A stretch of 64,000 bases of DNA, taken from positions 2,577-66,576 of the forward strand of contig DAOTYC010000060.1 of assembly GCA_034435095.1 (NCBI GenBank). The letters are read 5' to 3'. This DNA comes from Anaerolineae bacterium. Lineage in GTDB: Bacteria; Chloroflexota; Anaerolineae; DAOTYC01. Every line of letters starts with the position of its first letter. Position 1 is the stretch's first letter. The notes beneath the pieces are model-generated. The model did not search any database. It was not told the origin of the DNA and was given only the letters and a program-made list of their open reading frames with translations. A program made the position numbers and the translations under genes. This document shows positions 5,578 to 56,556 of this stretch, one piece after another.

Positions 5578-5606
5578 ATCATAACAACCGGTATATTTTG
5601 TTTACA

Positions 5607-5635: not shown

Positions 5636-5639
5636 AAGT

Positions 5640-26650: not shown

Positions 26651-27184
26651 GTGAAGAAGATGAGTTTGCAAGGCAAGAGAATTGCCATTCTGGCAGAGGA
26701 AATTTATGAAGATATGGAGCTGTGGTACCCCTATTACCGTCTGAAGGAAGCCGGCGCAGAGGTGGTAATCGTGGGCACCGGTTCAGCGAACCAATATCCC
26801 AGCAAGCACGGCATACCGGTCAAAGTTGATGTCGAAGCCGGCAAGATTTCAGCCGATGAGATAGACGGGGTCATCGTGCCCGGCGGGTTCGCGCCTGATA
26901 GAATGCGCCGCTACCCCGCCGTGTTGGAGTTGGTCAAGACCGCTTTCGACCGCGGCAAACTGGTTGCAGCCATCTGTCACGCCGGCTGGGTGTTGGTGTC
27001 TGCGAAGGTGTTGAATGGCCGTAGAGCTACTTGTGTGTCGGCCATCAAAGACGACGTGATCAACGCTGGGGCAACTTATGTAGATGAGCCGGTCGTGGTG
27101 GACGGCAATTTGATTACTTCACGGACGCCGGCAGATTTGCCGGTGTGGTTGCCCGCGATCATTTCATTCCTGGAGGGCAAATAG
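26651..27184 (+). CDS. DJ-1/PfpI-family protein
   Basis: GKRIAILAEE...AAICHAGWVLVSAKVL, with the nucleophile elbow Cys in AICHAG. Confidence 0.8.
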   Translation: MKKMSLQGKRIAILAEEIYEDMELWYPYYRLKEAGAEVVIVGTGSANQYPSKHGIPVKVDVEAGKISADEIDGVIVPGGFAPDRMRRYPAVLELVKTAFDRGKLVAAICHAGWVLVSAKVLNGRRATCVSAIKDDVINAGATYVDEPVVVDGNLITSRTPADLPVWLPAIISFLEGK

Positions 27185-27236
27185 GCAATGGCAAGCCTGG
27201 ATTTGCCCCATAGTTTGTGCTCGAAAGGAGGCAGAT

Positions 27237-28187: not shown

Positions 28188-28243
28188 CACGAACTTTTAG
28201 CCTGGAAGCGCAGAGAGGCTTTGATTAGATTAAGGAGGAAACC

Positions 28244-29053
28244 ATGAACGAATATCTTTTGCGAGAAGATGCCCCTCTTTCTAAGGAAGATTGGGAACGG
28301 ATTGACAACACGGTAGTCGAAGTAGCCAAAAGGTTGTTGGTTGGGCGGCGATTCATTCATCTGTTTGGCCCACTGGGGCATGGCGTCCAGTTCGTCACCG
28401 TAGACCGACTGGATGGCGCAGCAGGTGATGTCGTCGCTGTGGACTTGAGCCAACGACAGGTCGTCCAGTTGGTCACCATTCAAAAGGATTTCAAACTGCT
28501 GTGGCAAGATCTCGCCAACGGTGAACAGACCGGCTTGAAGTTCGATGTGGGGCCGGTGGCTGTCGCGGCTGTCGCGGCCGCCCAGGCCGAAGACGAACTG
28601 ATCTTCAAAGGTGGGAGTGGCATGGAGGGATTGCTGAGCGTCAAGGGCCACACCACTTCCCCATTGGGCAATTGGGACGAGGTCAATGCAGGTATCATGG
28701 CGGTAGCCGGCGCGGTTGGGAAGCTCATGGGCCGCGGCTTTTTGGGGCCATTTGCACTGGTCACCAACCCCGTGACCTACGCCAAGTTGTTGCGTCCCGT
28801 GCATGGTCAGGGCGCTCAGCTCGAAATCAAACTGGTGGAACAAATCGCGACGGCTGGCATTTTCCAGACACCAGCGTTGAAAGAAAATGAAGCGGTTGTG
28901 GTCTCCACCGGGCCGGAAAACCTCGACCTGGCGGTGGGACAGGACCTGGTCACAGCCTATCTGGGGCCGGACGGCCTGGACCACATCTTCCGCCTGGTAG
29001 AGACGGTCGCCCTGCGCATCAAGCGACCAGGGGCAATTTGCGTCCTGAAATAG
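28244..29053 (+). CDS. Family 1 encapsulin shell protein (HK97-fold, linocin M18-like)
   Basis: MNEYLLREDAPLSKEDWERIDNTVVEVAKRLLVGRRF and the C-terminal DLAVGQDLVTAYLGPDGLDHIFRLVETVALRIKRPGAICVLK align motif-for-motif with T. maritima/M. xanthus encapsulins (L.R..APL....W..ID ... LILGQDLSIGYED...ETFTF). AAGGAGG RBS. Confidence 0.85.
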   Translation: MNEYLLREDAPLSKEDWERIDNTVVEVAKRLLVGRRFIHLFGPLGHGVQFVTVDRLDGAAGDVVAVDLSQRQVVQLVTIQKDFKLLWQDLANGEQTGLKFDVGPVAVAAVAAAQAEDELIFKGGSGMEGLLSVKGHTTSPLGNWDEVNAGIMAVAGAVGKLMGRGFLGPFALVTNPVTYAKLLRPVHGQGAQLEIKLVEQIATAGIFQTPALKENEAVVVSTGPENLDLAVGQDLVTAYLGPDGLDHIFRLVETVALRIKRPGAICVLK

Positions 29054-29083
29054 AGACCAGTCCGTCTGGAATGAACGAGTGAA

Positions 29084-29128
29084 GGAGAGCGAAGATGACC
29101 ATAATTCATCTTCGCTCCTTTTGTTTTT
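29084..29128 (+). terminator. rho-independent terminator ending the encapsulin operon
   Basis: GAGCGAAGATGA-ccataat-TCATCTTCGCTC is a 12-bp perfect stem, followed by CTTTTGTTTTT. Confidence 0.65.
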
Positions 29129-29265
29129 GATAGGCCGGTCAAATTCTAACAAATCTCTAGTGGAATTATCCCTCGATATGGTGTATAATAGAGTTGAACA
29201 AAGGGGAGCCGTTGGGTGGCCCTTACGGTCATGAATCGTGAATGAACTTGAAAGGCTGAAGCAAG

Positions 29266-29928
29266 ATGTCGCACGGGATGTGGGAACTGCCCGACCTTTC
29301 GGAGAACTTATCTCGGCAGAGTGAATCGTTTGGAGAGGACCTCCGTCAGGTCTCCTACGCTGCGGGCGAGACAATCTACACGCCAAAGGCTGGCAGTGAA
29401 GCCGTGTATTTGTTGATCGAAGGCGAAGTACAGCTCTATCGGCTGGGCTCAGACGGCCGACGGTTCACGGTGGCGGTCCTGAAACCGGGTGCAGTATTCG
29501 GTCAGGCCAGCTTGTTGGGCAGCCTGGAGTCGGAAACGTATGCTGAAGCGACCGCGCCGTCCGCTGTGTGGTGTATTGCCGGACGCAGTGCTCAGGAGGT
29601 GTTTTCGCGCAGTCCCAGCCTCAGATTTGGCCTGCTCACCGGGCTGAGCCGACGCCTGGCCGATGCTGAGGAGCGTCTGGAGTGGATGGCCTACAAAAAG
29701 GTCTCGGCCCGGCTGGCCGGGCTGCTGCTGCAAATGATGGATGCAGAACGAAAAACGGTCACAGGCATCACCCATCAGAAGATGGCAGATATGCTGGGCG
29801 CGTACCGTGAGACTGTCAGCCAGGCGTTCAGAGAGCTTCGCGTTAAAGGCCTGGTCAGCCCTGGTCGCAAGAACATCAAGATACTGAACCCGGAGGGGCT
29901 CAGAAAAATGGCTGAGAATATGAATTAG
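29266..29928 (+). CDS. Crp/Fnr-family transcriptional regulator
   Basis: N-terminal cNMP-binding beta-roll and C-terminal HTH (MADMLGAYRETVSQAFRELRVKGLV). No N-terminal Cys cluster is seen, so it is probably not an Fe-S FNR. Confidence 0.85.
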   Translation: MSHGMWELPDLSENLSRQSESFGEDLRQVSYAAGETIYTPKAGSEAVYLLIEGEVQLYRLGSDGRRFTVAVLKPGAVFGQASLLGSLESETYAEATAPSAVWCIAGRSAQEVFSRSPSLRFGLLTGLSRRLADAEERLEWMAYKKVSARLAGLLLQMMDAERKTVTGITHQKMADMLGAYRETVSQAFRELRVKGLVSPGRKNIKILNPEGLRKMAENMN

Positions 29929-29941
29929 GAGGTAACTTGTA

Positions 29942-30370
29942 ATGTACAGCAAAATCGTCGTGACTCTCGACGGGTCTGCTCATGCCGAATGTGCACTCTC
30001 ACATGCCGAAGCATTGGCCAAGAGCCTGGGCGTCGAGCTGGTGCTGCTGCAAGTAGTCCCTTACCCCGAGGTGAGGGATGAAGCTGTTGAGCTCGAATGG
30101 CAGGAAGCCGCCCGCAAGTATATGGACGACATTGCGGCGGGCCTCAAGAGCCTGGGAGTCGAATCCCGTGTCGAAGTCTTATGGGGAGATGTGGCTGAGA
30201 AGATCGTTGAATATGTGGAAGAAGACAAGAATGCTCTGTTGGTGATGTCCACGCATGGCCGGACAGGATTAGCTAAATTGGCATTTGGCAGCGTCACCGA
30301 AAGAGTGTTAAGAGAGGCAAAGACCACTCCAGTGCTTGTGTGTCGTTGCATGGACAGCGGCGCTGCATAG
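29942..30370 (+). CDS. universal stress protein (UspA family)
   Basis: MYSKIVVTLDGSAHAECAL...VMSTHGRTGLAKLAFGSVTERVLREAKTTPVLV. Confidence 0.85.
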   Translation: MYSKIVVTLDGSAHAECALSHAEALAKSLGVELVLLQVVPYPEVRDEAVELEWQEAARKYMDDIAAGLKSLGVESRVEVLWGDVAEKIVEYVEEDKNALLVMSTHGRTGLAKLAFGSVTERVLREAKTTPVLVCRCMDSGAA

Positions 30371-30567
30371 GTCGCTTTTCCCGACTTCATGGGCCACCGG
30401 GCAGGCTCTTCATCAGGCGGCACGCGCTGCTTGATGGAGAGCCTGTCTTATTTCACGGACTATGCAGCTTATGTTGCCAGTAATCCAAAGTGGTGTATAA
30501 TCATTGTCGGGCGCACCTGCTGATATTCCCACCTTCACCGCGCTGGACATACAAGGAGGTCACGCAA

Positions 30568-31122
30568 ATGAACGTACTGAACCGCATTATTGTGGTGATT
30601 CTGTTGTTGATTTTGGTGGTCCTTATGCCTGTGCTGATATTCTTTATCATGGCGATGCCAGAAACTTCCATCGCCGCAGTCGAACAGGCTGTTTCATTCA
30701 TCAAGTCGCAAATGTCTTTCTTCAATCGTTTGATTTTCTCTATACTCGCGGCCGTGGTGTTCGTGGTATCTCTGTTCCTGCTCTGGGTGGAAGTCCGCCG
30801 GCCTAAGGCGCGAGTCGTCGCCGTCCAGGAAGTGAAAGTGGGAGAAGCGCGAGTCAACATTGACTCCATCGTTCAGCGACTGGAATACAATATTGACCGC
30901 CTGCAGGATGTCGTGAGCGCCCGACCGGTGGTGAAACCAAAGGGCAACGGCGTGGATGTGCTGGTTCACCTGGAAACCGCACCAGAAATTGACATTCCGA
31001 TGAAGACCGAGGAGGTCGTCCAGCTCACCCGTGAAGTGATTGAATCGCAAATGGGTCTGAAGCTGCACAATGTCAGCGTCGAGATCAAACACGCGCCGTA
31101 CCCTGAAGACACGGTTTTATAG
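30568..31122 (+). CDS. membrane-anchored hypothetical protein (AmaP/alkaline-shock-anchor-like)
   Basis: N-terminal TM MNVLNRIIVVILLLILVVLMPVLIFFIMAM, a second TM, then a soluble domain. RBS AAGGAGG. The promoter -10 is GGTGTATAAT at ~30491-30500. Confidence 0.45.
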   Translation: MNVLNRIIVVILLLILVVLMPVLIFFIMAMPETSIAAVEQAVSFIKSQMSFFNRLIFSILAAVVFVVSLFLLWVEVRRPKARVVAVQEVKVGEARVNIDSIVQRLEYNIDRLQDVVSARPVVKPKGNGVDVLVHLETAPEIDIPMKTEEVVQLTREVIESQMGLKLHNVSVEIKHAPYPEDTVL

Positions 31123-31227
31123 ACTGAGTCGCCTGATAATGCCGGGAACGCAGGCATCTGGCCCCAAATCAGCCCGAGACAGTGTGCGTGTGGGGAATAG
31201 AAGCTCGCACGCTTTACAGACAGCGAA

Positions 31228-31797
31228 TTAGCCGGTACGGATGCGCCCGGTTAGAAGTATTTCAGACTCCAATATTTCGATGTTCATCACCTGAACATCC
31301 AACTGAGCTTCCAGGAGAGTCTCATTGATGGTTTGAGACAGGGCGTCCAAGACAAAACCAGGTACTGGAAAGGGGCCCGCAGAACTTTTCTGGATTTCGA
31401 ATTGGACTCGGTCGTTGACAACCTGCGCCGAAGAGACCAACGTCACCCTGATTCTAAACGGCAGCACGCCTACCACGGTGACGGCTGCGAAAATTTTGCC
31501 TTTGGTGAAGCGGACCCGCGGGTCCGCTATCATCGCTTGTGGCTCTTTCGCCGCGCGAAGGGCCAACCAGGAGCTCATCTCTTCGTCGCTAATCTTTAGA
31601 TTGAACTGGCTGCTCGGCCCTTGCTGCAACGCCTCAGCGACTTTCTTTTCCAGGCGGAGGGCCGCTTCTTCGGAGACAGATATAGGGCCGCCAGGGAGTT
31701 CTGAGTTCGGGTCGGTTTGTCCTGGCACACAGGCCAGGGTCATGACCACAACGAACAACAGGCATCCCAGCAGCAATACGGAACGACCTCCATTCAT
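31228..31797 (-). CDS. hypothetical secreted protein or lipoprotein
   Basis: Signal peptide with VMTLAC lipobox-like cleavage site. I recognise no family. Confidence 0.45.
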   Translation of the reverse strand: MNGGRSVLLLGCLLFVVVMTLACVPGQTDPNSELPGGPISVSEEAALRLEKKVAEALQQGPSSQFNLKISDEEMSSWLALRAAKEPQAMIADPRVRFTKGKIFAAVTVVGVLPFRIRVTLVSSAQVVNDRVQFEIQKSSAGPFPVPGFVLDALSQTINETLLEAQLDVQVMNIEILESEILLTGRIRTG

Positions 31798-31924
31798 CGC
31801 GCCGCGTCCTCCTTTTGACGTTCGGTCAGAGTCTATATTGATAACAGGGACAAATCGGCGACAGTGATTATACCAAATACCCGACCGTCAGACAAAAACC
31901 GGGCGGGCGGGTTTCATCGGCAAG

Positions 31925-32533
31925 GTGCTGAAATCAGTGAGAAGTGAGACAGAATCCAAAGACATCAGCGAGATTAAGCTCATCTTGGAAAGCCTGCTGT
32001 TCGTTGCGACAGAGGCAATCGCTGTGTCTCGTTTGGCAGATGTGGCGGGCGTTTCTCCGGCGGAAGTAGAAAGTGCCCTGCGAGAATTGGAAGCGGACTA
32101 TCAACAGCGTGGCTTTCGCTTGCAGCGGCACAGGGACATGGTACAACTGGTCAGCGCGCCCGAAATGGCCTCCTATGTGGAGAAATTTCTAGGTTTAGAT
32201 TTGACGACTAAGCTGTCAGCGGCAGCTCTCGAGACCCTGGGGATCATTGCCTATCGCCAACCGGTGACCCGCGCCCAAATTGAGGCCATTCGCGGTGTGA
32301 ACTGCGATGGTGTTTTGCGCACGCTGTTGAACTTCGGCTTGATAGAGGAATGTGGGCGCCTCGAACAGGCGGGCCGGCCGATCCTGTACGGCACCACTTT
32401 TCAGTTTCTACAGTACTTCGGCTTATCCAGGCATGATGAATTGCCACCGCTGGAGGAAATTGCCGGGCAAGACCCGCCGGACTCGTCGGCTGATGCGGAA
32501 CGCGATGAGTCAGTCAAGTACCTTAAATCATGA
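31925..32533 (+). CDS. scpB: segregation and condensation protein B
   Basis: ILESLLFVATEAIAVSRLADVAGVSPAEVESALRELEADYQQRGFRLQ is a canonical ScpB winged helix. Confidence 0.85.
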   Translation: MLKSVRSETESKDISEIKLILESLLFVATEAIAVSRLADVAGVSPAEVESALRELEADYQQRGFRLQRHRDMVQLVSAPEMASYVEKFLGLDLTTKLSAAALETLGIIAYRQPVTRAQIEAIRGVNCDGVLRTLLNFGLIEECGRLEQAGRPILYGTTFQFLQYFGLSRHDELPPLEEIAGQDPPDSSADAERDESVKYLKS

Positions 32534-33452
32534 GTCGAATGGAGACCCGACCTTGACTGCTAAAGAACGATTACAAAAAGTATTGGCATCGTATGGAATC
32601 GCCTCGCGCCGGGCGTGTGAGGAGATGATCCGCGCCAGGCGCGTGCAAGTGAACGGCCACATCATCACCGAACAAGGCGTCAAGGTTGACCCGGCTGTGG
32701 ATGACATCCGCGTCGACGATGTTCCCCTGCCCAAGAAGATGCCGTTGACCTATATCCTGCTCAACAAACCGGTGGGGGTGGTTTCGACCGCAAGCGATGA
32801 GAAGGGACGCAAAACAGTTGTGGATTTGGTCCCCTCTACAGTGAGGGTCTACCCGGTGGGCAGATTAGACGCCGACAGCGAGGGCCTGATCCTGCTGACC
32901 AATGATGGCGAGCTGACCCATTATCTGACCCACCCCCGCTACGGGCATAAGCGCGAGTACCGCGTGTTGGTCATCGGCAGGCCAGAGGAGGAATCGCTCC
33001 AGAGAATACGACGCGGCATGATCCTCGAAGAAGGACCCACCGGCCCCGCCGTTGCCGAGATTGTTGGCCCAAAAGGCTGCGAACGGGACCACCTCCCCGC
33101 GCCCGAACGCGGCACAACCTGGCTGAAAATTGTCATCGGCGAGGGCCGCAAACATCAAGTACGGCGCATGTGCGAGATCATCGGCCACCCGGTGCTGCGA
33201 CTTATCCGGGTCGGCATGGGGCCGCTTCGCCTGGGCAATTTGCCCATCGGCCAATACAGGTACTTGACTCCAGAGGAGGCCGCCGCCCTGCGCTCGGCGG
33301 TCAGCGGCAGTGAAAAGCGATCAGGGGGCGGACGAACCCGAATTGCACACCAGCCTGCTCTTCCAGCAGGCCGGCATCCTCAGACCGGTCGCAGCAATGC
33401 CGTTCCACGCTCTGTCGGACGAAACAGACCTGGCACACGGAGAGAAGAATAG
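32493..33452 (+). CDS. rluB: RluB/RsuA-family rRNA pseudouridine synthase
   Basis: S4 domain ERLQKVLASYGIASRRACEEMIRARRVQVNG and catalytic VGRLDADSEGLILLTNDGELTHYLTHPRYGHKREY. The start is ambiguous: ATG ~32493 or ~32505, and the track start at 32352 overlaps scpB. Confidence 0.8.
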   Translation: MRNAMSQSSTLNHESNGDPTLTAKERLQKVLASYGIASRRACEEMIRARRVQVNGHIITEQGVKVDPAVDDIRVDDVPLPKKMPLTYILLNKPVGVVSTASDEKGRKTVVDLVPSTVRVYPVGRLDADSEGLILLTNDGELTHYLTHPRYGHKREYRVLVIGRPEEESLQRIRRGMILEEGPTGPAVAEIVGPKGCERDHLPAPERGTTWLKIVIGEGRKHQVRRMCEIIGHPVLRLIRVGMGPLRLGNLPIGQYRYLTPEEAAALRSAVSGSEKRSGGGRTRIAHQPALPAGRHPQTGRSNAVPRSVGRNRPGTRREE

Positions 33453-33456
33453 CGCT

Positions 33457-34152
33457 ATGAAGAAAATCTCTACTATCGCCATTGATGGGCCTGTGGCCTC
33501 TGGGAAAAGCACCGTCGGTCAGCGGTTGGCCCGCAAGCTGAACTATCTGTACTTCGATACCGGGGTCATGTACCGCGCTATCACCTGGGCTGCCCTCAAG
33601 CGGGGCATCCCCATCGAAGACGAGGCCGCGCTCAGCGCATTGGCCGAGGAAGTTGCCATCACGGTTACTCAACCAACTGTAGACGATGGGCGGCAATACG
33701 ATGTATACGCCGATGATGAAGACATCACCTGGGCCATTCGCTCGCCGGAGGTCGAACGGTATGTCTCACCCGTCTCGGCTTATCCCGGCGTCCGCCGTGC
33801 CCTGACCCGCCAACAGAGGGCAATTGGTCTGCGCGGCCATGTGGTGATGGTGGGCCGGGATATTGGCACGGTGGTGCTGCCAGATGCCGACCTGAAAATC
33901 TATTTGGATGCCTCGGTCAATGAGCGCGCCCGACGCCGTTACCAGGAAAAGCTGGCCCGCGGCGAACAGGCCGACCTGGAAGAAGTGCTGGTCTCCACCC
34001 GCCGACGCGATGAGATTGATTCGACTCGAGCCGCTGCGCCGCTACGCGCCGCAGACGACGCGGTGATCGTGCCGACGGACGACCTCGATGTGGATGGCGT
34101 GGTGGAGGTCATCCTGCGGATTCTGGCCGCACGCGAGCGAGAGGACCCGTGA
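33457..34152 (+). CDS. cmk: cytidylate kinase
   Basis: MKKISTIAIDGPVASGKSTVGQRLARKLNYLYFDTGVMYRAITWAALK. ATG ~33457 lies directly after the rluB stop. Confidence 0.9.
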   Translation: MKKISTIAIDGPVASGKSTVGQRLARKLNYLYFDTGVMYRAITWAALKRGIPIEDEAALSALAEEVAITVTQPTVDDGRQYDVYADDEDITWAIRSPEVERYVSPVSAYPGVRRALTRQQRAIGLRGHVVMVGRDIGTVVLPDADLKIYLDASVNERARRRYQEKLARGEQADLEEVLVSTRRRDEIDSTRAAAPLRAADDAVIVPTDDLDVDGVVEVILRILAAREREDP

Positions 34153-35438
34153 AGCCAATCGGCGGGATGGTAGCGCGCGTCTTGCCCGGCAGTATCGCCG
34201 ACGAGCTCGACCTGAAACCCGGCGACCAGATCATCTCGATCAACGGGCATGTCCTGCACGATGTCATTGATTACCGCTTCTACGGCGCGGAAGAACACAT
34301 CGAACTGTTGGTGCGTCGAGGAGATGAAGAGCTGCTGTTCGAGGTCGAGCGCGACTACGGCGAGGAACTGGGACTGGAATTTGCAGAACCAACGTTCGAT
34401 GGCGTGCGCCATTGCGTTAACCACTGCTCATTCTGCTTCATCAAGGGGATGCCACCGGGTCTGCGGCCCTCTCTTTATGTCAAAGACGACGATTACCGCT
34501 ATTCATTTCTGTTCGGCAACTTCATTACGTTGACCAACCTCTCCGAGGCGGACTGGACGAGAATTGCCGAACAGCACCTCAGCCCCTTGTACATCTCAGT
34601 CCATGCGACCGACGATGCCCTGCGCCGCCGTTTGTTGAGTAACCCAAGGGCGCCCGAAATCCTGCCTCAGTTGTGCCGCCTGCGAGACCTCGGCATTGAA
34701 ATGCACACCCAGATTGTGCTGACGCCCGGGCAAAACGACGGCGACTGCCTGCACCGAACGGTTTCAGACCTGGCAGGCCTGTGGCCCGCCGTGCGCAGCG
34801 TGGGCATCGTGCCGGTCGGCCTGACGCGCTTCCAGCGTGGCTGTGGCCGCGTTTACCGCGCCGATGAAGCAGAGCCGCTGCTGGACACAGTGGCTGCATG
34901 GCAAAAGCACTATCGTCGGCAGTTTGGCCTGAATTGGGTCTACGCCGCCGATGAATGGTACCTGCTGGCCGGGCGGCCTGTGCCCTCGGCCAGAGCATAC
35001 GACGGATTCCCGCAGGTGGAGAACGGCATTGGCCTGGTCCGTATCCTGTTGGACGATTGGGTCAAGGCGCGTCGCAAGAAGCCGCCCACGGCCCAATCAC
35101 CCATTACCCTGGTTTGCGGGATACTGATCGCTCCGCTTTTGAGCCAATTAGCCGATGAGTTGGCCGCATTCGTGGGAGTGTCGGCAGACGTCCTGCCCGT
35201 AGCGAACCGCTTCTTCGGCGAGCAGGTCACTGTCTCCGGTCTGCTGACCGGTCAGGATGTACGCACCGCTCTGCAACGCGCCCGCCCGACGGGCTGGGTT
35301 TTCCTGCCTCGCGCCATGTTCGATGACGCGGGCCGCGCCACCCTGGACGACCTCACAATTCCCGAAATCGCCCAGGGACTCGACGCGCGAATCGAGATAG
35401 CAGCGACGCTGAGTCAGGTTGTCCGAGCGATGAGCTAA
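34149..35438 (+). CDS. DUF512-type PDZ-domain / radical-SAM-like protein
   Basis: N-terminal PDZ (VARVLPGSIADELDLKPGDQIISING), then CVNHCSFCF (CxxxCxxC) and the conserved downstream core. Confidence 0.7.
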   Translation: MKPIGGMVARVLPGSIADELDLKPGDQIISINGHVLHDVIDYRFYGAEEHIELLVRRGDEELLFEVERDYGEELGLEFAEPTFDGVRHCVNHCSFCFIKGMPPGLRPSLYVKDDDYRYSFLFGNFITLTNLSEADWTRIAEQHLSPLYISVHATDDALRRRLLSNPRAPEILPQLCRLRDLGIEMHTQIVLTPGQNDGDCLHRTVSDLAGLWPAVRSVGIVPVGLTRFQRGCGRVYRADEAEPLLDTVAAWQKHYRRQFGLNWVYAADEWYLLAGRPVPSARAYDGFPQVENGIGLVRILLDDWVKARRKKPPTAQSPITLVCGILIAPLLSQLADELAAFVGVSADVLPVANRFFGEQVTVSGLLTGQDVRTALQRARPTGWVFLPRAMFDDAGRATLDDLTIPEIAQGLDARIEIAATLSQVVRAMS

Positions 35439-35442
35439 CGGT

Positions 35443-35565
35443 TTATCCACGGATCCCGGCCTTGCCCGCCAATTCGGCGGCGAACTTGCCAGAGCGAATA
35501 ACCAACGGTACGCCACCGCCGGGCTGCACGGTCGCCCCGGCGTAGAAGAGATTAGGGAAATATGG
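35443..35565 (-). pseudogene. 3' remnant of a CrtI/CrtD-family FAD-dependent desaturase gene, truncated by insertion of the R-M islet
   Basis: Minus-strand frame PYFPNLFYAGATVQPGGGVPLVIRSGKFAAELAGKAGIRG* aligns with the CrtI C-terminus in this window (KFANLYFTGGATHPGTGLPIVLISAKLTAERVVTGR*). An in-frame TGA lies immediately upstream at the GC-content break. Confidence 0.5.
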
Positions 35566-35598
35566 TCATCGCTTCAAAATTGGCTGGCGCGACGAATC

Positions 35599-35628
35599 TT
35601 GACAAAGCACCCAGTATATTGTATAATT
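35599..35628 (+). promoter_or_regulatory. near-consensus sigma70 promoter of the Phd-like/MTase operon
   Basis: TTGACA-18 nt-TATAAT. Confidence 0.6.
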
Positions 35629-35649
35629 TGGCTAAATTATACAATATAC
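35614..35649. promoter_or_regulatory. perfect 16-bp inverted repeat (putative operator) overlapping the -10 and TSS
   Basis: GTATATTGTATAATTT-ggct-AAATTATACAATATAC. The arms are exact reverse complements. Confidence 0.55.
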
Positions 35650-35667
35650 GAAGTTGGAGCAGACGGA

Positions 35668-35910
35668 ATGGTTACCAAGACTATCTCTTCCACTACTGCA
35701 CAGAATAACTTTGGCCGCGTTCTTGATGACGTGATTCAAAATGATTCTCGCTATGTCATCAAGCGTCGAGGCTTGCCGCAAGCCATACTGTTGAGTTTGC
35801 CGGATTTTGAAAGATTGTTGGTAGCCAATGCTCACGAACGGTTGGCGGTGGGGCAGCTACTGCGCGAAATCGGGCCAGTGTACCAACTTGGAGAGACTAT
35901 TAAGCAGTAA
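35668..35910 (+). CDS. Phd/YefM-fold antitoxin-like DNA-binding protein (putative controller of the R-M system)
   Basis: 80 aa, MVTKTISSTTAQNNFGRVLDDVIQNDSRYVIKRRGLPQAILLSLPDFERLL, matches the Phd/YefM N-terminal fold. It ends 8 nt before the MTase ATG. No cognate toxin gene is adjacent. Confidence 0.65.
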   Translation: MVTKTISSTTAQNNFGRVLDDVIQNDSRYVIKRRGLPQAILLSLPDFERLLVANAHERLAVGQLLREIGPVYQLGETIKQ

Positions 35911-35918
35911 GTGACAAC

Positions 35919-36863
35919 ATGACAATTGAGCAACTTGAGCGCATTTATACACTTCACTATGAATTTCATCGTTTCACAAATTCGATTGTGATACATGCGG
36001 ATTGTTTTGCGTGGATGAGCGAAATTCCCCCTGACAGCATTCATGCTATCGTCACAGATCCTCCCTACGGAGTGAAAGAATACGATCCAGAACAATTAGA
36101 AAAGCGAGCAAATGGAAATGGGGGAGTTTGGCGCATCCCACCATCCTTTGATGGCCATGTCAGGTCGCCTTTACCACGCTTTACCGCGCTGAATCAAAAG
36201 GAAAGAGAGCGAATTCGAGAGTACTTTTGTGAGTGGGCTCAACTGGCTTTACGAATCTTACGCCCTGGCGCCCATGTTTTCCTGGCATCAAACGTTTTCC
36301 TCTCACAAATAGTCTTTGCCGCGATTGCTGATGCTGGCTTAGAGTTCCGTGGGCAGGTGGTCAGATTGGTCAGAACATTCCGAGGTGGCGATAGGCCAAA
36401 GAACGCGGAGGATGAATTTCGAGACGTTTGCTCAATGCCACGCGGTTGTTATGAACCATGGGGCATCTTTCGAAAACCTATCCCCAAAGAAATGACTCTG
36501 AGCGAATGCCTACGAATCTTCCAAACCGGCGGCTTGCGTCGAAAACCAGATGGCAACCCCTTTGAGGATGTCATCGAAAGTGAACGCACACCACAAAAGG
36601 AGCGAATGATAGCTGACCACCCAAGCCTGAAGCCGCAATCTTTTCTTCGCCAAATCGTGCACGCTTCTTTGCCGTTGGGTGAAGGGATAGTACTTGACCC
36701 TTTTATGGGCTCTGGTTCTACCATTGCGGCGGCTGAAGCGACAGGATATTCTGCTCTTGGTGTTGAGAAGTGCAGAGAATACTACTCGATGAGCTTACAG
36801 GCCATTCCTTCTTTGTCTTCGCTTTATGTCAAAGAGACACAAATGTCTTTTCAGTTAATCTAA
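35919..36863 (+). CDS. beta-class N6-adenine/N4-cytosine DNA methyltransferase
   Basis: Motif IV IVTDPPYG comes before motif I LDPFMGSGSTIAAAE. That order places it in the beta group. Confidence 0.85.
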   Translation: MTIEQLERIYTLHYEFHRFTNSIVIHADCFAWMSEIPPDSIHAIVTDPPYGVKEYDPEQLEKRANGNGGVWRIPPSFDGHVRSPLPRFTALNQKERERIREYFCEWAQLALRILRPGAHVFLASNVFLSQIVFAAIADAGLEFRGQVVRLVRTFRGGDRPKNAEDEFRDVCSMPRGCYEPWGIFRKPIPKEMTLSECLRIFQTGGLRRKPDGNPFEDVIESERTPQKERMIADHPSLKPQSFLRQIVHASLPLGEGIVLDPFMGSGSTIAAAEATGYSALGVEKCREYYSMSLQAIPSLSSLYVKETQMSFQLI

Positions 36864-37547
36864 GTCCTCATACACCCAGTTGGCTTTCATTTTTCTCACG
36901 CCGCTTTGCGTAACACTGGCAGTAATCGTTCGACGACTGGTTTCCGAACGCCCGGAAAAGGCCCAATCACCTTTATCAAGCCTAGCAGCGTAAACGCCCT
37001 TGAAGCGAAACGGCTTAGATTCTACACCTCTTATCTTATCCCGCGATGTATTGCTGTCAAAATAGAATACCATAAGCCAAACAGGTTCTGGGTTATGTCC
37101 TTGCCAGCCACTTGCATGCCTTGAGGCTTTTATCTCGATCCCATCTTGCGCATATTGTACTGTATCATTGGGAAACTTCCCTCTGGGTATCAGGTCAGGA
37201 TGCCCATTGTGATATCGGTTTTTTACCAGGTAGGTGCAATGCTCGGGAATTCTGAGGCCCATAAACTCTCCCACAATGCTGCTAAAATTAGCTGGCATCA
37301 GAAAACTCTCAAGCCTGGGGAATCCTTTTGTGTGGAGTTGCTGGTTTATGAAGCCTAGAAAACTTGTGAGGTCTTCCATGGCTCGACGCACATGTTCGGT
37401 TGTCAAGCCATAAGGAAGACTGACTTCAGGATTAAAGCGGTTCGGGTTCACAGGTACAGGTGTACAAGCCGCGAATTCATCGAGCATTGTAGTTATCTCA
37501 CAGTCTTCTAAAATGTTTAACCATTGTCGAAACTCGGCCTGGCGCAC
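36855..37547 (-). CDS. putative Type II restriction endonuclease (PD-ExK)
   Basis: Convergent with the MTase and overlapping it by 9 nt. It carries GHPDLIP...DGIEIKAS (PD...ExK) and is AT-rich. The real start may be the internal MLDEF (~37487), which avoids overlap with the MFS 3' end. Confidence 0.55.
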   Translation of the reverse strand: MRQAEFRQWLNILEDCEITTMLDEFAACTPVPVNPNRFNPEVSLPYGLTTEHVRRAMEDLTSFLGFINQQLHTKGFPRLESFLMPANFSSIVGEFMGLRIPEHCTYLVKNRYHNGHPDLIPRGKFPNDTVQYAQDGIEIKASRHASGWQGHNPEPVWLMVFYFDSNTSRDKIRGVESKPFRFKGVYAARLDKGDWAFSGRSETSRRTITASVTQSGVRKMKANWVYEDLD

Positions 37548-38719
37548 CGCACATCATGCCCTCGATGGCTCGAATAGGCGAACGCACAGAGCAGGCCCAG
37601 TACAGGGGCGACTGTCAGCCATTGCAGACCGATGGTCAAAGAGGATTGGTCGGCAATGAAGCCCGTCAAAGACGCACCGACGCCGCCGGGCAACCAGCCG
37701 ATGCCAGTCGCCAGGGCGGAAGCGAGACCCACTCCACGCGGCCATGCCTCTTGCGCTGCGGCGATGGTCACCGGAAAACTGAACCCGATCAGAAAACCGA
37801 TGCAGCCGGTCAGCAGAGCCAGCCAATCTCCCGATGTGTGGATGAACAACCAGTGAGTCGGGGCGAGCAGGCCCAAGCCCAACGCCAACACTCGCCAGCG
37901 TCCAATCCGGTCGGACAGCGCGCCCCCGGCCAGGCAGCCGACGCCGACGGCTATAGACAGGATGGTCAGCGTCTGCCCACTTCTCACCAGCGACCAGCCC
38001 TGAGATTGCAGCCACTCCGCCAGGTAGGTGGAGAAGCTGAAATGATACCACGACCGGCACATGACGATCAGCGTGACAAGCGCCAACGCCAACAAGGACC
38101 CGGGGGGCGCGTCGGTCGGCCTTGCGTCGGCCAGTCGCCTGTCAAATGAGGCGTGGGCTGCCGCACGACGTCCCAGGTTCCATTCCCAGTATAAGAGCAC
38201 GGCTGTGCCCACGGCGATGGGCGCCAAAACCAGTGTGCCGGACAGGCCAAGCAGGCCGATAATGACCGTAATCAGGAGCGGGCTCAGGGCCGAACCGAGC
38301 GTGCCGCCCACGGAGAAGACCGCCAGCGCGCCACCCCGTTTGTCAGCATCCACCGATCCGGTGGAACTCGCGCCGGCTGGATGGAAAGCCGCCGAACCCA
38401 ACGCGCCAAATCCCACGACCAGAAGCAGCAGCCAATAGTTGCCCACCAGGCCAACCAGCCCCATGACGAGACCGATCCAGGCAACGCTGGCGACGACAAT
38501 GGCCCGCGGGCCCCATCTGTCGCTGAGATAGCCGAACAGCGGTTGAGCCAATGTATCGCCAATAATGGAGACAAAGGCCACGAACCCAACCTGGGTATAG
38601 GACAAACCCATAGTTGTGATCAGGATGGGATAGAGTACCGGCATGAAATTGTTGCACAGCTCAATGCTGAAATGAGCTAAAGCGATGGGGAAAATATGAC
38701 GGACTGTATCTCGACCCAT
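37517..38719 (-). CDS. MFS transporter
   Basis: 12 TM helices in an MFS-type arrangement. The C-terminal tail may be altered by the islet insertion. Confidence 0.8.
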   Translation of the reverse strand: MGRDTVRHIFPIALAHFSIELCNNFMPVLYPILITTMGLSYTQVGFVAFVSIIGDTLAQPLFGYLSDRWGPRAIVVASVAWIGLVMGLVGLVGNYWLLLLVVGFGALGSAAFHPAGASSTGSVDADKRGGALAVFSVGGTLGSALSPLLITVIIGLLGLSGTLVLAPIAVGTAVLLYWEWNLGRRAAAHASFDRRLADARPTDAPPGSLLALALVTLIVMCRSWYHFSFSTYLAEWLQSQGWSLVRSGQTLTILSIAVGVGCLAGGALSDRIGRWRVLALGLGLLAPTHWLFIHTSGDWLALLTGCIGFLIGFSFPVTIAAAQEAWPRGVGLASALATGIGWLPGGVGASLTGFIADQSSLTIGLQWLTVAPVLGLLCAFAYSSHRGHDVRCARPSFDNG

Positions 38720-38725
38720 GGACGC

Positions 38726-39457
38726 TTACTCTCGGCCTTCCAGGCCATGTGCCTCCAGGAGGGAGACATCGCTGAGTAAGTCAGCGGTAGGCCCATCGGC
38801 GACAATCACTCCCTCATCGAGAATGACCGTCCGCGAACACAGTTTGCGCGCCAGTCGCTCGTCATGGGTGGCAATTAACATTGTCTGAGGCAAAGTACGC
38901 AGAAGCTCAATCAACTTGCAGCGGCCGCGCGGGTCCAGGCCGGCCGATGGTTCGTCCAGCACCAGGACCTCCGGCGACATGGAAAGGACAGAGGCCAGGG
39001 CAGCACGTTTCCGCTCGCCAAGGCTGAGGTGATGCGGCATGCGCTGCTCGAACCCCTGCAGATTGACCTGCTGCAAAGCCCAATCCACCCGTTCACGCAC
39101 CTCGACTGGCGACAGTCCCATGTAGATGGGCCCGTACGCCACGTCATCCATCACCGTTGGCGAGAAGAGTTGGTCATCCGGGTTATCGAAGATGACTCCC
39201 ACCTTTGACCGGATCAGACCGAGGTTGCGTTCGTTCAGTTCGATGCCCATGATCCAGATAACCCCGTGGCTGGGCAGCGTACCGTTGAGGTGCAGCAAGA
39301 GGGTAGATTTACCGGCCCCGTTCGGCCCCATCAGCGCGACTTTCTCACCAACGGCGACGTTCAGGTAGACGTCGCGCAAAGCCACCCGACCATCCTGATA
39401 GCTGTAAGACAGACCCCGCACCTCGATGGCCAGGCGCGGGGAAGCGACATGTTCCAA
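38726..39457 (-). CDS. cbiO: ECF/cobalt-type ABC transporter ATP-binding protein (CbiO/EcfA)
   Basis: Walker A GPNGAGKST, signature LSLGERKRAALA, Walker B LVLDEPSAGLD. Confidence 0.85.
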   Translation of the reverse strand: MEHVASPRLAIEVRGLSYSYQDGRVALRDVYLNVAVGEKVALMGPNGAGKSTLLLHLNGTLPSHGVIWIMGIELNERNLGLIRSKVGVIFDNPDDQLFSPTVMDDVAYGPIYMGLSPVEVRERVDWALQQVNLQGFEQRMPHHLSLGERKRAALASVLSMSPEVLVLDEPSAGLDPRGRCKLIELLRTLPQTMLIATHDERLARKLCSRTVILDEGVIVADGPTADLLSDVSLLEAHGLEGRE

Positions 39458-39510
39458 AGCGGCATTCCTCCTGATAGGCTATGCCAAAAGGATTTTGTGG
39501 GAATCAAGAA

Positions 39511-40332
39511 TCAGAAGACACCCGGCGACAACACTGAATAGGATAATACCACAACTGCGAGGATTAGCAAAGAGGTGCCGGCGACCAGGGCATCTTGCCC
39601 TTGCAGCCGCAACTGTTGAGCAGAACGTATCTCACCATCGAAGCCTCGCGCGCGCATCGCCAGGTAGATGCGCTCGCTTCGTTCGTAGCTGCGGAGGAAC
39701 AGCGTCCCGGCCATCTGGCCCGTCACTTTGGCGCGCCAGGCCAGCGTGCCGCCTGCCTGCCTGTCGGGGCGCGCGCTGCGCGCGTCGCGGGCGGCCATCA
39801 TCCGCCTCACTTCGTCTACCAGCACAAACAGGTAACGGTACATAAAGCCCAACATTGACACCAGCAGAGGGGGCAGTCCCAAACTGCGCAGGCCACACAA
39901 CAGTTGAGTGAACGGCGTGGTAGCTGACAGGATGAGCGCGGCCTGGAGACCAAGCCAGGATTTCAGGAGGATAGACAGGAAGCGGACAAGGCCCTCGGCC
40001 GTGGCCGTCAGGTGCAACGACCCCCAGGCCACGCTGAACAGCGGCTGCCCGGGCGTGGTAAACACCAGGGCCAGGGCAGCGAGCGCGAACGGCAAAGCTA
40101 CGGTGGAGCGACTGAGCATGGCGCCGAGAGGCAGGCGAGCAGCCCAGATTGCAAGCAGGATCAAGCCCCAAAAAGCCAGCGGCCAACTGAAGTGGACATC
40201 GAGCGGCAGGCTGGTCAGCACGACGATGTACAGCACAACTACTGCCAGCTTGACGCGGGCATCCAGACGATGCACCGGACTGGAGCGCGATATATACGGC
40301 TCAAGCTCGAACATGTTGATTGTCACTGTCAA
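39511..40332 (-). CDS. cbiQ: ECF transporter T component (CbiQ/EcfT)
   Basis: HRLDARVKLAVVVLYIVVL and the conserved TM core. Confidence 0.8.
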   Translation of the reverse strand: MTVTINMFELEPYISRSSPVHRLDARVKLAVVVLYIVVLTSLPLDVHFSWPLAFWGLILLAIWAARLPLGAMLSRSTVALPFALAALALVFTTPGQPLFSVAWGSLHLTATAEGLVRFLSILLKSWLGLQAALILSATTPFTQLLCGLRSLGLPPLLVSMLGFMYRYLFVLVDEVRRMMAARDARSARPDRQAGGTLAWRAKVTGQMAGTLFLRSYERSERIYLAMRARGFDGEIRSAQQLRLQGQDALVAGTSLLILAVVVLSYSVLSPGVF

Positions 40333-40622
40333 ATTCCGGCGGACTTGTTCTGTGTCTTAAGCCAGCTTGCCAACCCATATCCCAGCGCAAACAGGAGAAG
40401 CGTGCCCACCACTCCGGCCACAATGGTCGCCAGGGCTTCATCAGGAATGCCGGGAAACACATAATCGGGAATGATGTGATAAAACGGCTCGGTGGCACGG
40501 TCAATGAAGCCATGATCTTCGGCCACGCGCTCCAGCCCATCAGGGTATGAAGACGCCAAAGGAGATGCCACAGCCAATAGCAACGCGACGAACAAGGCGA
40601 TAAGCCACCAACCCCTTTTCAT
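40329..40622 (-). CDS. PDGLE-domain membrane protein (CbiN-like accessory component)
   Basis: SSYPDGLERVAEDHGFIDRATEP flanked by two TM helices. Confidence 0.65.
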   Translation of the reverse strand: MKRGWWLIALFVALLLAVASPLASSYPDGLERVAEDHGFIDRATEPFYHIIPDYVFPGIPDEALATIVAGVVGTLLLFALGYGLASWLKTQNKSAGI

Positions 40623-40628
40623 TGTTCC

Positions 40629-41291
40629 TTACCCCCTCTCACCAATAGTTGACAAGGTCGGTCCATAGCTCAACAGGTCGCGCCGTGTGGCGTAAATCAA
40701 CGCCATCGCCGCAGTGGTGATCAGGCCCTCGCCAATACCAATCAGGGCATGAACGCTGCCCATAGCCGGGATGGCCAGGCCAAACGGCGAAGTCCCCGAC
40801 AATCCCAGCTCAACAGCGCAAGCCAGTGAGGCAATCACGATAGACAACCATGCCGCACCAAACCGACTGATCCATAACCCCACCGAATTTTTGCCAACAA
40901 TTTGGGTCAATACCAGGTAAGTAAGATAGGCGGAGAATGTGCCGACGACGGCCATATTGGTAATGTTGGCGCCCAGCACGATCAGGCCGCCGTCCTGGAA
41001 CAGCAGGGCCTGGACAGCGACGACGCAGGTCATGATCAGCACACTCACCCACGGCCCGACCAGCAGTGTAGCCAACGCTGCACCGAGGAAATGTCCTGAT
41101 GTGCCGCCAGCGACGGTGAAATTGAGCATCTGGGCGGCGAAGATGAAAGCTGCCAAGACGCCGGTGAGCGGGACCTGCCGCTCACCCAGGGCATGTCGGC
41201 TGCGGGTCAGGGCAAGCCAGATGAAAAAGACGGCAACAATCCACAACACAGCCGAAACCGCCGTGCTCAGGAAACCGTCTGGAATGTGCAT
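40629..41291 (-). CDS. cbiM: CbiM/NikM-type substrate-capture component
   Basis: N-terminus MHIPDGFLS at the internal ATG ~41291, and a polytopic membrane core. Confidence 0.8.
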   Translation of the reverse strand: MHIPDGFLSTAVSAVLWIVAVFFIWLALTRSRHALGERQVPLTGVLAAFIFAAQMLNFTVAGGTSGHFLGAALATLLVGPWVSVLIMTCVVAVQALLFQDGGLIVLGANITNMAVVGTFSAYLTYLVLTQIVGKNSVGLWISRFGAAWLSIVIASLACAVELGLSGTSPFGLAIPAMGSVHALIGIGEGLITTAAMALIYATRRDLLSYGPTLSTIGERG

Positions 41292-41424
41292 CGGTTGTTC
41301 CGTCACGCGTTCGGTAACCAATGGAGCAATCGTAAACAACATCTTAACCTCCTTTGTGTCATTTTGCCTTCCGAGCTCCCCCACGGCGCGTGGGCGCGCC
41401 GCTCATTGGGGAAGAAACACCGCC

Positions 41425-56546: not shown

Positions 56547-56556
56547 AGGAAGTGCT

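Follow-up and report, generated by a model that had tools for sequence, protein, structure and literature searches.

Introduction

Type II restriction-modification (R-M) systems such as PvuII, AhdI, Esp1396I and Csp231I are controlled by C proteins (PMC3874152, PMC2175313, PMC2275141), and in EcoRII, SsoII/Ecl18kI and ScrFI the methyltransferase (MTase) represses its own promoter by means of an N-terminal HTH domain (PMC3874152). R-M systems have also been linked to indels and substitutions lacking mobility genes (Furuta, Abe and Kobayashi 2010, PMC2853133), a 'substitution' being defined there as an allelic site at which the DNA differs over more than 1 kb.

The locus described here lies in a 64,000-nt stretch of an Anaerolineae contig, hereafter the window. 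We consider it likely that it is an acquired, self-contained Type II R-M cassette, consisting of a phd-like regulator, a beta-class MTase and a convergent PD-(D/E)XK restriction endonuclease (REase), which entered through illegitimate recombination. By the criterion of PMC2853133 the islet is a 'substitution', and it resembles the cases collected there in being an R-M pair with a GC content below that of the host, present in one genome and missing from a close relative, with boundaries at gene ends and no integrase or transposase. It differs from that kind in having neither a long target duplication nor flanking repeats, and in having replaced a host gene whose fragments are still present, so that insertion and deletion can be reconstructed. 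The insertion event itself is ordinary; as for a Phd/YefM-type regulator of R-M systems, no earlier description was found in a literature search that covered few papers from subscription journals.

Results and Discussion

A Foreign Islet in the Place of a Desaturase Gene

The features of the locus, in window coordinates, are the following:

35446..35562, minus strand: 3' remnant of a crtI-family gene, codons 443-481 and stop (39 codons)
35566..35596, minus strand: second, internal crtI fragment, codons 94-104 (FVAPANFEAM), 31 bp
35597..37487: conserved and mobile R-M cassette, 1891 bp, GC 0.472, beginning 2 nt ahead of the -35 box and ending with the REase start codon
35599..35627, plus strand: sigma-70 promoter of the phd-MTase operon, TTGACA-17 nt-TATAAT, 12/12 consensus match
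35614..35649: putative operator, 16-nt inverted repeat GTATATTGTATAATTT / AAATTATACAATATAC with a 4-nt centre
35668..35910, plus strand: Phd/YefM-fold protein, 80 aa, PF02604 (E 6.7e-11), with a GGAG ribosome-binding site upstream
35919..36863, plus strand: beta-class DNA MTase, 314 aa, PF01555 (E 1.8e-18), PADLOC MTase_II PDLC03215 (E 8e-103)
36855..37487, minus strand: Type II REase candidate of PD-(D/E)XK fold, 210 aa, its 3' end overlapping the MTase gene by 9 bp
37488..37540: foreign DNA of about 50 bp (53 bp) upstream of the REase gene, including the new end of the MFS gene
37517..38719, minus strand: MFS transporter gene of the host, chimeric at its 3' end, PF07690 (E 7e-43)

The initial annotation had pointed to a low-GC segment of about 2 kb, and its foreign composition was established computationally: the span 35560-37520 (1961 bp) has a GC content of 0.469, the lowest of the whole window, in which spans of the same size average 0.574 (sd 0.025), and the windowed profile reaches its 2-kb minimum at 35561-37540 (0.47 vs 0.574). 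GC3 is shifted as well, being 0.52 in phd, 0.44 in the MTase gene and 0.46 in the REase gene versus 0.61-0.75 in eight flanking genes. Other copies of the cassette are also below their own flanks in GC, in 28 loci out of 28. The gene content had been correctly read: the islet carries only three genes, encoding the Phd/YefM-like protein (PF02604), the beta-class MTase (DPPY, then FMGSG) and the convergent 210-aa PD-ExK candidate.

The alignment of the flanks with relatives lacking the islet, proposed at the outset as a check, was run and defined the empty site in a sister species (L083-L086), which has the MFS gene, an intact 481-aa Amino_oxidase/NAD_binding_8 (CrtI-family) gene and a convergent DUF512 gene, but not the islet. 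The MFS orthologue was the route to this site; a scan of GTDB genomes with the DUF512 protein gave best relatives just 62-70% identical and no downstream synteny, and the islet proteins had no tblastn match in the 80 loci examined. The flanks are 85.6% and 86.5% identical to L083; against this reference, about 14% diverged, homology ends at 35560 on the left flank and resumes at 37541 on the right one, the non-homologous block 35561-37540 of the window replacing L083 11180-12582. The islet bounds initially placed at 35566-37520 are hence corrected to 35561-37540 by the empty-site comparison, the islet itself being upheld. The same junctions occur in two further assemblies (L081 and L082, 99.95% identity), therefore they are not an assembly artefact. 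Similarity with other cassette copies at the DNA level begins at 35597 and ends at 37478-37482.

The empty-site references comprise one lineage (about 86% identity) and one more distant contig, L087, in which the MFS-to-crtI adjacency is kept. Copies of the cassette were found in unrelated phyla and on plasmids, and no outgroup genome was found with the cassette at the same position and a host-like composition. That the islet is horizontally acquired foreign DNA, as originally claimed, is supported, since it is absent from a sister species with the same flanks and an intact gene there.

At the left edge, a CrtI/CrtD-like gene had been described as truncated by an in-frame stop to a 40-codon 3' remnant. 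The stop is indeed present, two codons upstream of the start of homology, while the remnant counts 39 codons and a second crtI fragment had been missed. In the remnant, 34 of the 40 final residues are identical to the intact L083 orthologue, and residues 443-480 of the latter match window positions 35562-35449 by tblastn (89%). The second fragment adjoins the left end of the cassette, in a frame different from that of the remnant; it is identical to L083 11533-11563 at 28 of 31 nt, in the same orientation (E 5e-7), and is matched by tblastn too. These two colinear fragments, codons 443-481 and 94-104, are all the crtI that survives in the window. The identity of the disrupted gene, also proposed earlier, was confirmed at the level of the family: the L083 orthologue scores 264.5 bits and that of L087 273.7 bits against TIGR02734 crtI_fam (cut-off 238.1), which supports a CrtI/CrtD-like (CrtI-family) desaturase, and the orthologue scores under the cut-offs of the equivalog models CrtD and CrtID.

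At the right edge, the MFS protein and P0122, its counterpart in the empty-site species, share 94% identity, and the C-terminus reads PSFDNG* in the window vs SVRVGE* in that orthologue; the last six codons and the stop (37517-37519) come from foreign DNA. Thus, the overlap originally reported between the right edge and the 3' end of the MFS gene holds insofar as foreign DNA forms the MFS end, but not for the reading frames. In fact, the REase starts at ATG 37487 (210 aa), the start shared by all homologues and chosen by both gene callers, and not at GTG 37547, therefore the REase and MFS frames do not overlap; the MFS gene is transcribed toward the REase gene across a gap of 29 nt. The 53 bp upstream of the REase gene gave no match to the deleted target region (L083) or to other copies of the cassette.

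Mode of Insertion

As had been noted, no transposase or integrase is found among the three genes of the islet, and no terminal repeats, direct or inverted, are visible at the edges (35561/35597 and 37487/37540). A target duplication was looked for there as well and not found. The event was an illegitimate, deletion-associated insertion of a kind already catalogued for R-M systems. Compared with the empty site, it is not a simple insertion: besides the cassette, located near crtI codon 93, there are two losses from the target, of about 353 bp and about 1017 bp.

The course of events can be proposed as follows. The cassette would have entered the Chloroflexota chromosome through illegitimate recombination, without a recombinase of its own, landing near codon 93 of the CrtI-family gene. 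A deletion of about 353 bp, which removed crtI codons 1-93 together with the spacer and the 3' end of the MFS gene, and another of about 1017 bp, which took crtI codons 105-442, may have accompanied or followed the insertion, and together these changes would have killed the desaturase gene and given the MFS protein its six-residue tail. Post-segregational killing by the R-M pair could explain why the insertion was retained despite the loss of a host gene. The islet is a clean and fully reconstructed instance of a host gene being inactivated by a naked R-M cassette without a recombinase.

The Methyltransferase and the Candidate Endonuclease

In the MTase, the motifs DPPY (residues 47-50) and FMGSG (262-266) follow the beta-class order, that is motif IV, target-recognition region and motif I. 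A motif IV of DPPY, and not SPPY, is the mark of an N6-adenine beta-class MTase. The best NCBIfam and PDB relatives (PRK11524, CcrM and MboIIA) are adenine enzymes, and the protein probably modifies N6-adenine; no characterised close relative was found in the search for relatives.

The 210-aa protein carries an intact motif, H96-P97-D98 and E118-I-K120, of which P97, D98, E118 and K120 are retained even in homologues as low as 27% identity. In its AF2 model (pLDDT 90), which has an alpha/beta core, D98 lies before a core strand and E118-x-K120 in the next core strand. TM-scores of the model vs known REases are low (0.3-0.4). The protein and 33 diverse relatives had no Pfam or NCBIfam match, sequence searches of the PDB (by phmmer and with a profile of distant members) gave nothing, and PADLOC REase_II gave a partial match only (E 4.7e-7). 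The fold was the sole informative comparison for this protein. It resembles the NaeI/EcoRV/SwaI/ThaI branch of PD-(D/E)XK enzymes in core fold, placement of the catalytic motif, size (about 210 aa) and position beside a cognate MTase gene, but at the sequence level it shows no detectable similarity to them (structural alignments give 9-13% identity) and belongs to no Pfam family.

The pairing with the MTase is obligate in the loci compared: a convergent MTase gene directly follows the REase stop in 77 of the 77 loci having at least 200 nt beyond it, and the identities of the two proteins fall in parallel from locus to locus. The pair is also seen on plasmids and viral contigs, distant pairs being carried by 4.9-kb ColE1-type Klebsiella plasmids. 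The REase family, with more than 3,300 clusters at 90% identity, spans several phyla and occurs on plasmids as well as some viral contigs. Where sources give its members a name, it is 'hypothetical', and no Pfam model covers them; the family offers an inexpensive target for annotation and for the discovery of enzymes.

No consensus promoter was found for the R gene in the window, and the regions upstream of R showed no conservation between loci. As in C-protein systems, some copies of the same R-M family carry a classical HTH regulator upstream of R: on the Acidiphilium plasmid pACMV5 the gene of such a regulator overlaps the start of the R gene, and Xre-like C-termini are encoded upstream of R in three further loci (L106, L120 and L166).

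The Phd/YefM-like Gene, Its Promoter and a Putative Operator

The 80-aa protein scores above the cut-offs of both PF02604 (42.3 bits, cut-off 29.8) and TIGR01552 (26 bits, cut-off 20.8). Its AF2 model (pLDDT 78) has the order beta-alpha-beta-beta-alpha, and the top 40 Foldseek matches are all antitoxins of the YefM/Phd/RelB type. Beyond residue 68 the chain is predicted to be unstructured, and the C-terminal tail, RELxPxYxLGE, is conserved, with P70, Y72 and G75 invariant. Fifteen columns are invariant in an alignment of 47 sequences, in which purifying selection on the protein is evident.

The consensus promoter upstream of phd is conserved across 25 related loci, and other R-M types have it as well. 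The putative operator is 100% complementary, spans the -10 box together with the expected start of transcription, and contains the box TTGGCTAA. The motif TTAGCTAA-N-TTAGCTAA follows the gene: loci with Phd have it with a mean of 2.8 mismatches, whereas from Phd-less loci it is absent (mean 6.96 mismatches, equal to shuffled sequence), and it is present upstream of phd in Eco29kI-type systems too. No second operator was found near the R gene, the sole other match in the window, at 30269, being at chance level.

Phd is present in 30 of the 59 loci with enough room, and in all 30 it lies directly upstream of M; in other loci its slot is occupied by HTH_17/MerR-like or RHH-like ORFs, as judged by eye from the sequences. 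Since half of the copies of the cassette lack it, Phd is, on this distribution, dispensable for the core R-M function.

A Possible Class of R-M Controllers

The clade to which this Phd belongs comprises 106 clusters, of which 7 were sampled (54-100% identity). All seven precede an N6_N4 MTase gene that has a convergent REase gene, with a phd-MTase spacing from overlapping frames to 38 nt; the MTase is the gene downstream of phd in the window and in each of these contexts, and no toxin gene of the Doc, YoeB or RelE type was found in the islet or in the seven contexts. Three R-M types are joined to the clade, one of them with PF09517 RE_Eco29kI, and the same promoter-operator arrangement is found in all. 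The three Type II systems bearing the module are the PD-ExK family, an Eco29kI-type GIY-YIG system and a third type.

On these linkages, Phd/YefM looks like a portable R-M controller, analogous to the C proteins. As C proteins do, it stands as a separate small protein, predicted to be dimeric and to bind DNA, at the head of one of two convergent units, with its putative operator within its own promoter; it is modular and common to unrelated R-M systems, and the presumed purpose is the same, namely M before R on entry. On the other hand, it has the Phd/YefM antitoxin fold and not an Xre-type helix-turn-helix, and phd heads the M operon and not the R gene. Unlike C-boxes, TTAGCTAA-N-TTAGCTAA overlies the -10 box and start site in a promoter that already matches the consensus, for which reason pure repression is predicted rather than the activation-then-repression of C-boxes. 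To our knowledge, the operator is unrelated to known C-boxes. Fold, M-side position and operator would therefore make Phd a functional analogue of the C proteins at most, and not a member of them.

The predicted autorepression of M, high at entry and low later, with promoter competition or collision affecting R, recalls EcoRII, SsoII/Ecl18kI and ScrFI; here, however, the predicted repressor is not a domain of the enzyme but an 80-aa protein with a gene of its own upstream of M, and the genes are convergent, not divergent. With the YefM-YoeB and Phd-Doc operons the locus shares the family and fold, a phd gene placed first in a tight operon with a strong promoter, a putative palindromic operator overlapping the -10 box and a conserved, probably disordered C-terminal tail. 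What differs is the gene after phd, which encodes a DNA MTase, the 'antitoxin' of the R-M pair, and not a toxin.

It is, in our estimate, an even call whether the clade represents an undescribed class of R-M controllers, in which a module of promoter, TTAGCTAA-N-TTAGCTAA operator and 80-aa repressor is set on the MTase genes of three or more Type II systems unrelated to one another.

Proposed Working of the System

The MTase would protect a short site, and a dimer of the REase would cut the same site when unmethylated. In a naive cell, the consensus promoter could drive a burst of methyltransferase on entry, and the operon would later be throttled by the Phd-like protein, a dimer of which may repress the phd-M operon by binding the palindromic operator that spans the -10 box and start site. 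The R gene, without a consensus promoter, is probably weakly expressed, perhaps by read-through from the MFS gene. Early and strong transcription of M would meet the overlapping R gene head-on, and such a collision could delay restriction.

If Phd is a true repressor, R-M systems have recruited the DNA-binding module of toxin-antitoxin systems as an alternative to C proteins. Such a module, in place of the Xre-type C proteins, would directly connect, at the molecular level, the regulation of toxin-antitoxin systems with that of R-M systems and would widen the known range of ways to time methylation before restriction; its sequence signature could help to locate R-M systems, with their promoters, in metagenomes.

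Alternative Explanations

The Phd gene might instead be an orphan or decaying antitoxin from a lost toxin-antitoxin pair, hitch-hiking without a role in R-M. The protein is a member of PF02604 and TIGR01552 with a YefM fold, the islet has no toxin gene and half of the cassette copies do without Phd, all of which fit such an origin; nevertheless we hold it unlikely, because the seven sampled clade members all lie directly upstream of an MTase gene, in three R-M types and with no toxin, because promoter and operator are conserved and co-vary with the presence of Phd, and because of the purifying selection seen in the 15 invariant columns of 47 sequences. Another alternative is a role as a proteic antitoxin, the tail neutralising the REase or modulating the MTase, perhaps within a co-repressor complex like that of YefM-YoeB. 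The tail is suggestive, both for its conserved motif with P70, Y72 and G75 and for a predicted disorder past residue 68 like that of the toxin-binding tails of Phd/YefM. The same tail is, however, kept with an unrelated GIY-YIG Eco29kI-type REase and with a 302-aa partner protein, which makes a REase-specific interaction unlikely; neutralisation of the REase was downgraded as a candidate on this ground. Many cassettes lack Phd, moreover, or have HTH or RHH regulators instead. An interaction with the shared PF01555 MTase fold would escape the argument from the tail, and taken as a whole a proteic antitoxin is improbable. We therefore retain the view that the Phd gene is not a stray antitoxin but, most likely, a transcriptional controller of the system.

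As regards the islet as a whole, it could be ancestral in this lineage, the sister species having lost it and carrying an unrelated desaturase gene in its place. This would owe what credit it has to the small sample of empty sites, one lineage at about 86% and one more distant contig; we find it scarcely credible, considering that the window holds two colinear fragments of that same desaturase gene, in the right order and orientation, that two lineages share the MFS-to-crtI adjacency, that the GC and GC3 of the islet are far from the host values and that the cassette is known from unrelated phyla and on plasmids. Acquisition of the islet stands against it, and the reading of the 210-aa protein as the REase of the acquired pair is likewise preferred to other roles, such as a repair nickase or a methyl-dependent nuclease, and to an inactive relic. 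Both are very unlikely: the protein is obligatorily paired with the MTase, their genes overlap at the 3' ends and the two sequences diverge in parallel; classical C-protein genes precede the 210-aa gene in some copies; a methyl-dependent nuclease beside its own methylase would be lethal; and the catalytic motif is intact. The window copy has a Leu at a position where at least 90% of the homologues and the two sister assemblies have Phe, and because of this substitution (F40L) its activity could be reduced.

Composition, Empty Site and Junctions of the Islet

The initial annotation described a low-GC islet of about 2 kb with atypical codon usage, and this is borne out by a windowed GC profile, in which 35560-37520 (1961 bp) has a GC of 0.469, the lowest of all equal-size spans in the window (mean 0.574, sd 0.025), and by third-position GC (phd 0.52, methyltransferase 0.44, endonuclease 0.46, versus 0.61-0.75 in eight neighbours). 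Its three genes, a Phd/YefM gene (phd), a beta-class methyltransferase (M) and a convergent PD-ExK ORF (R), were confirmed by a PF02604 match, the DPPY/FMGSG motif order and P97-D98/E118-I-K120, respectively. Since the junctions recur identically in two other assemblies (L081 and L082) at 99.95% identity, the contig is not chimeric. The features are as follows:

35446-35562 (-): crtI 3' remnant, 39 codons, preceded by an in-frame stop
35566-35596 (-): internal crtI fragment, codons 94-104
35597-37487: mobile unit, 1891 bp, starting 2 nt ahead of the -35 box and ending at the endonuclease start codon
35599-35627: sigma-70 promoter upstream of phd, 12/12 match
35614-35649: perfect 16-nt inverted repeat, putative operator, spanning the -10 box plus the expected transcription start
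35668-35910: Phd/YefM gene (PF02604, E 6.7e-11)
35919-36863: N6_N4 methyltransferase, DPPY at residues 47-50 and FMGSG at 262-266 (beta-class order)
ATG at 37487 (-): endonuclease candidate, 210 aa, motifs H96-P97-D98 and E118-I-K120
37488-37540: residual foreign DNA, 53 bp

The DUF512 neighbour, used as query in species-representative genomes, gave only distant and non-syntenic matches. The MFS protein has a 94% identical orthologue (P0122) in a sister species, whose four contigs (L083-L086) carry the entire neighbourhood in the same order without the islet: MFS, an intact 481-aa Amino_oxidase/NAD_binding_8 gene and the convergent DUF512 gene. Aligning the flanks with L083 by BLASTN defined the empty site: identity is 85.6% over 26933-35560 and 86.5% over 37541-41372, and 1980 bp in the window (35561-37540) occupy the place of 1403 bp. 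In the more distant contig L087 (MFS 74% identical) the desaturase gene likewise comes next after MFS. The intact gene belongs to the phytoene desaturase family (TIGR02734, 264.5 bits; cut-off 238.1) and scores under the cut-offs of the CrtD and CrtID equivalog models. The window contains a second CrtI-family gene at 55071-56549 (+), a paralogue that shares 26% identity with the intact orthologue (tblastn, E 6e-39) and may or may not make up for the lost gene. The left flank also contains, at about 27237-29053 (approximate, from L081 gene calls with an offset of 24148), a ferritin-like protein gene immediately followed by one for Linocin_M18 (encapsulin shell), just after rubredoxin, pyridine-nucleotide oxidoreductase and DJ-1/PfpI genes, which looks like an encapsulated-ferritin oxidative-stress cluster.

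The left edge truncates the CrtI-like ORF at an in-frame stop, as had been noticed, leaving the 39-codon remnant (34/40 residues identical to L083). It adjoins the internal fragment, of the same orientation but in a different frame, which matches L083 11533-11563 at 28/31 nt (E 5e-7; FVAPANFEAM in the window, FVAPADFEAM in L083). We delimited the mobile unit as 35597-37487 because DNA similarity to other cassette copies begins precisely at 35597 and breaks off at 37478-37482. The following 53 bp, without match in the replaced target region or among other cassettes, give the MFS gene a new tail (PSFDNG* replacing SVRVGE*), in agreement with the overlap reported for the right edge. Relative to L083 two stretches are missing, about 353 bp (the last 24 nt of MFS, a 50-nt spacer and crtI codons 1-93) and about 1017 bp (crtI codons 105-442); together with the fragments left behind, this points to a landing near crtI codon 93, accompanied, or later followed, by at least two deletions. 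No terminal repeats, target duplication or recombinase gene were found at the islet, and gene calls and a repeat search at its edges agree with the initial annotation that integrase, transposase and terminal repeats are missing. The islet fits what Furuta et al. (PMC2853133) define as an R-M 'substitution', here without mobility genes, a class already known. Both the observation and the interpretation first given hold, with refinements. As an R-M acquisition the islet is ordinary; its notable parts are an uncharacterised endonuclease family and, above all, a recurrent, putative controller module of Phd/YefM type.

The Endonuclease Candidate and Its Methyltransferase

The DPPY motif and the adenine-specific nearest relatives of the methyltransferase suggest an m6A product. 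For the endonuclease, two independent gene calls give the ATG at 37487; a longer reading from GTG (230 aa), which would run into the MFS gene, was rejected, as homologues are all 209-218 aa. Neither the 210-aa protein, nor 33 relatives down to 27% identity, nor the profile built on them match Pfam, NCBIfam or PDB by sequence, and PADLOC reports a partial REase_II match (E 4.7e-7). Homologous clusters number >3,300, and the 50% clustering level adds 527 representatives; named homologues, labelled 'hypothetical', are 60-84% identical and come from bins of Chloroflexota, Marinimicrobia, Bacillota and Deltaproteobacteria. Residue 40 is Leu in the window (CTC, 37370) but Phe in the near-identical L081 and L082 and in at least 90% of homologues; L082 additionally carries N107K (window 37167). 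Two of the about 12 distinct differences from L081/L082 over about 20 kb fall inside this 633-bp gene.

Among 80 metagenomic loci, a convergent, abutting methyltransferase follows the endonuclease stop in all 77 with at least 200 nt beyond it, and the two proteins diverge in parallel. The homologue on Acidiphilium plasmid pACMV5 has its start overlapped by a gene annotated as an HTH regulator and faces a convergent methyltransferase, as in the textbook C-R/M layout, and Xre-like C-termini lie immediately upstream of R in L106, L120 and L166. A 34%-identical R and M pair occurs on 4.9-kb ColE1-type Klebsiella plasmids. Because these contexts (paired methyltransferase, C-type regulators, plasmids) agree, the protein is taken to be the Type II endonuclease cognate to M and to represent an undescribed sequence family within the EcoRV/NaeI structural branch.

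On the Klebsiella pneumoniae plasmid pCol4401-L117 (NZ_CP040037.1) the pair lies at 2602-4322; it is also present in eight further plasmid records from Klebsiella. The plasmids are mobilizable, those listed from Klebsiella and Citrobacter being ColE1-type and 4.9-5.2 kb. On the plasmids the endonuclease homologue is labelled 'hypothetical protein' and its convergent neighbour 'DNA methyltransferase'; clinical isolates apparently carry here a plasmid-borne R-M system that has so far gone unannotated. The pair (58-66% and 63-68% identity) also occurs, without phd, on five IMG/VR contigs (L170-L174, 32-86 kb), which may be phages or prophage-adjacent host DNA. Cassette GC was under flank GC in 28/28 related loci drawn from L088-L166 (means 0.50 and 0.59) and tracks host GC (r = 0.82), which suggests partial amelioration in many hosts.

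A Recurrent, Proposed Phd/YefM-Type Controller Module

Of the 59 loci with space for the gene, 30 have phd, in every case immediately before the methyltransferase. In the remaining loci either nothing or another small ORF takes its place; judged by eye, these ORFs resemble DNA-binding proteins, HTH_17/MerR-like (L126, L145, L160) or ribbon-helix-helix-like (L123, L131). Other loci have a C-type regulator upstream of R instead. The promoter is conserved in 25 other Phd-bearing loci, followed by TTAGCTAA-N-TTAGCTAA with a mean of 2.8 mismatches; loci without phd, scanned over 400 nt ahead of M, average 6.96, equal to shuffled sequence. The AF2 model of the Phd-like protein (pLDDT 78) has YefM topology, and its best 40 Foldseek matches are YefM/Phd/RelB-type antitoxins.

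In the mechanism that we propose, the Phd-like protein acts as a dimer to repress transcription from the consensus promoter ahead of phd. On entry into a naive cell this promoter would be active and produce a methyltransferase burst, and strong M transcription would run into the convergent R gene, whose 3' end overlaps that of M by 9 bp with no terminator found between them at the locus. As repressor accumulates, M would drop to a maintenance level and R would be relieved. No recognisable promoter was found for R; transcription may reach it by read-through from MFS, with 29 nt between the MFS stop codon and the R start. The scheme resembles methyltransferase autorepression in EcoRII, SsoII and Ecl18kI and shares its purpose with C proteins (PMC3874152), but uses a toxin-antitoxin DNA-binding fold instead; no earlier description of a Phd/YefM-type R-M regulator was found in the literature searched, whose coverage was incomplete.

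The module extends beyond this R-M family. The Phd-like protein belongs to a small clade (106 clusters at at least 54% identity), and 7/7 members with contigs examined precede an N6_N4 methyltransferase and a convergent nuclease, of three kinds: the window's own family, including cultured Roseiflexus sp. RS-1; 454-aa methyltransferases with PF09517 RE_Eco29kI endonucleases; and a 332-aa methyltransferase with a 302-aa protein of no assigned family. The latter two kinds have the same promoter-operator ahead of phd, and no toxin gene was found in the contexts examined. The C-terminal motif RELxPxYxLGE is conserved across all three, which argues against an endonuclease-specific neutralising role for the Phd tail. 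The Eco29kI-type islets (L179-L181, L183, L185-L187) and that of the third type (L182, with the 302-aa ORF convergent) are compact, have three genes and lie among housekeeping genes without mobility genes. The L183 islet (3257-7036), flanked by Exonuc_VII_S and Exonuc_VII_L Pfam matches, may have split an xseB-xseA pair.
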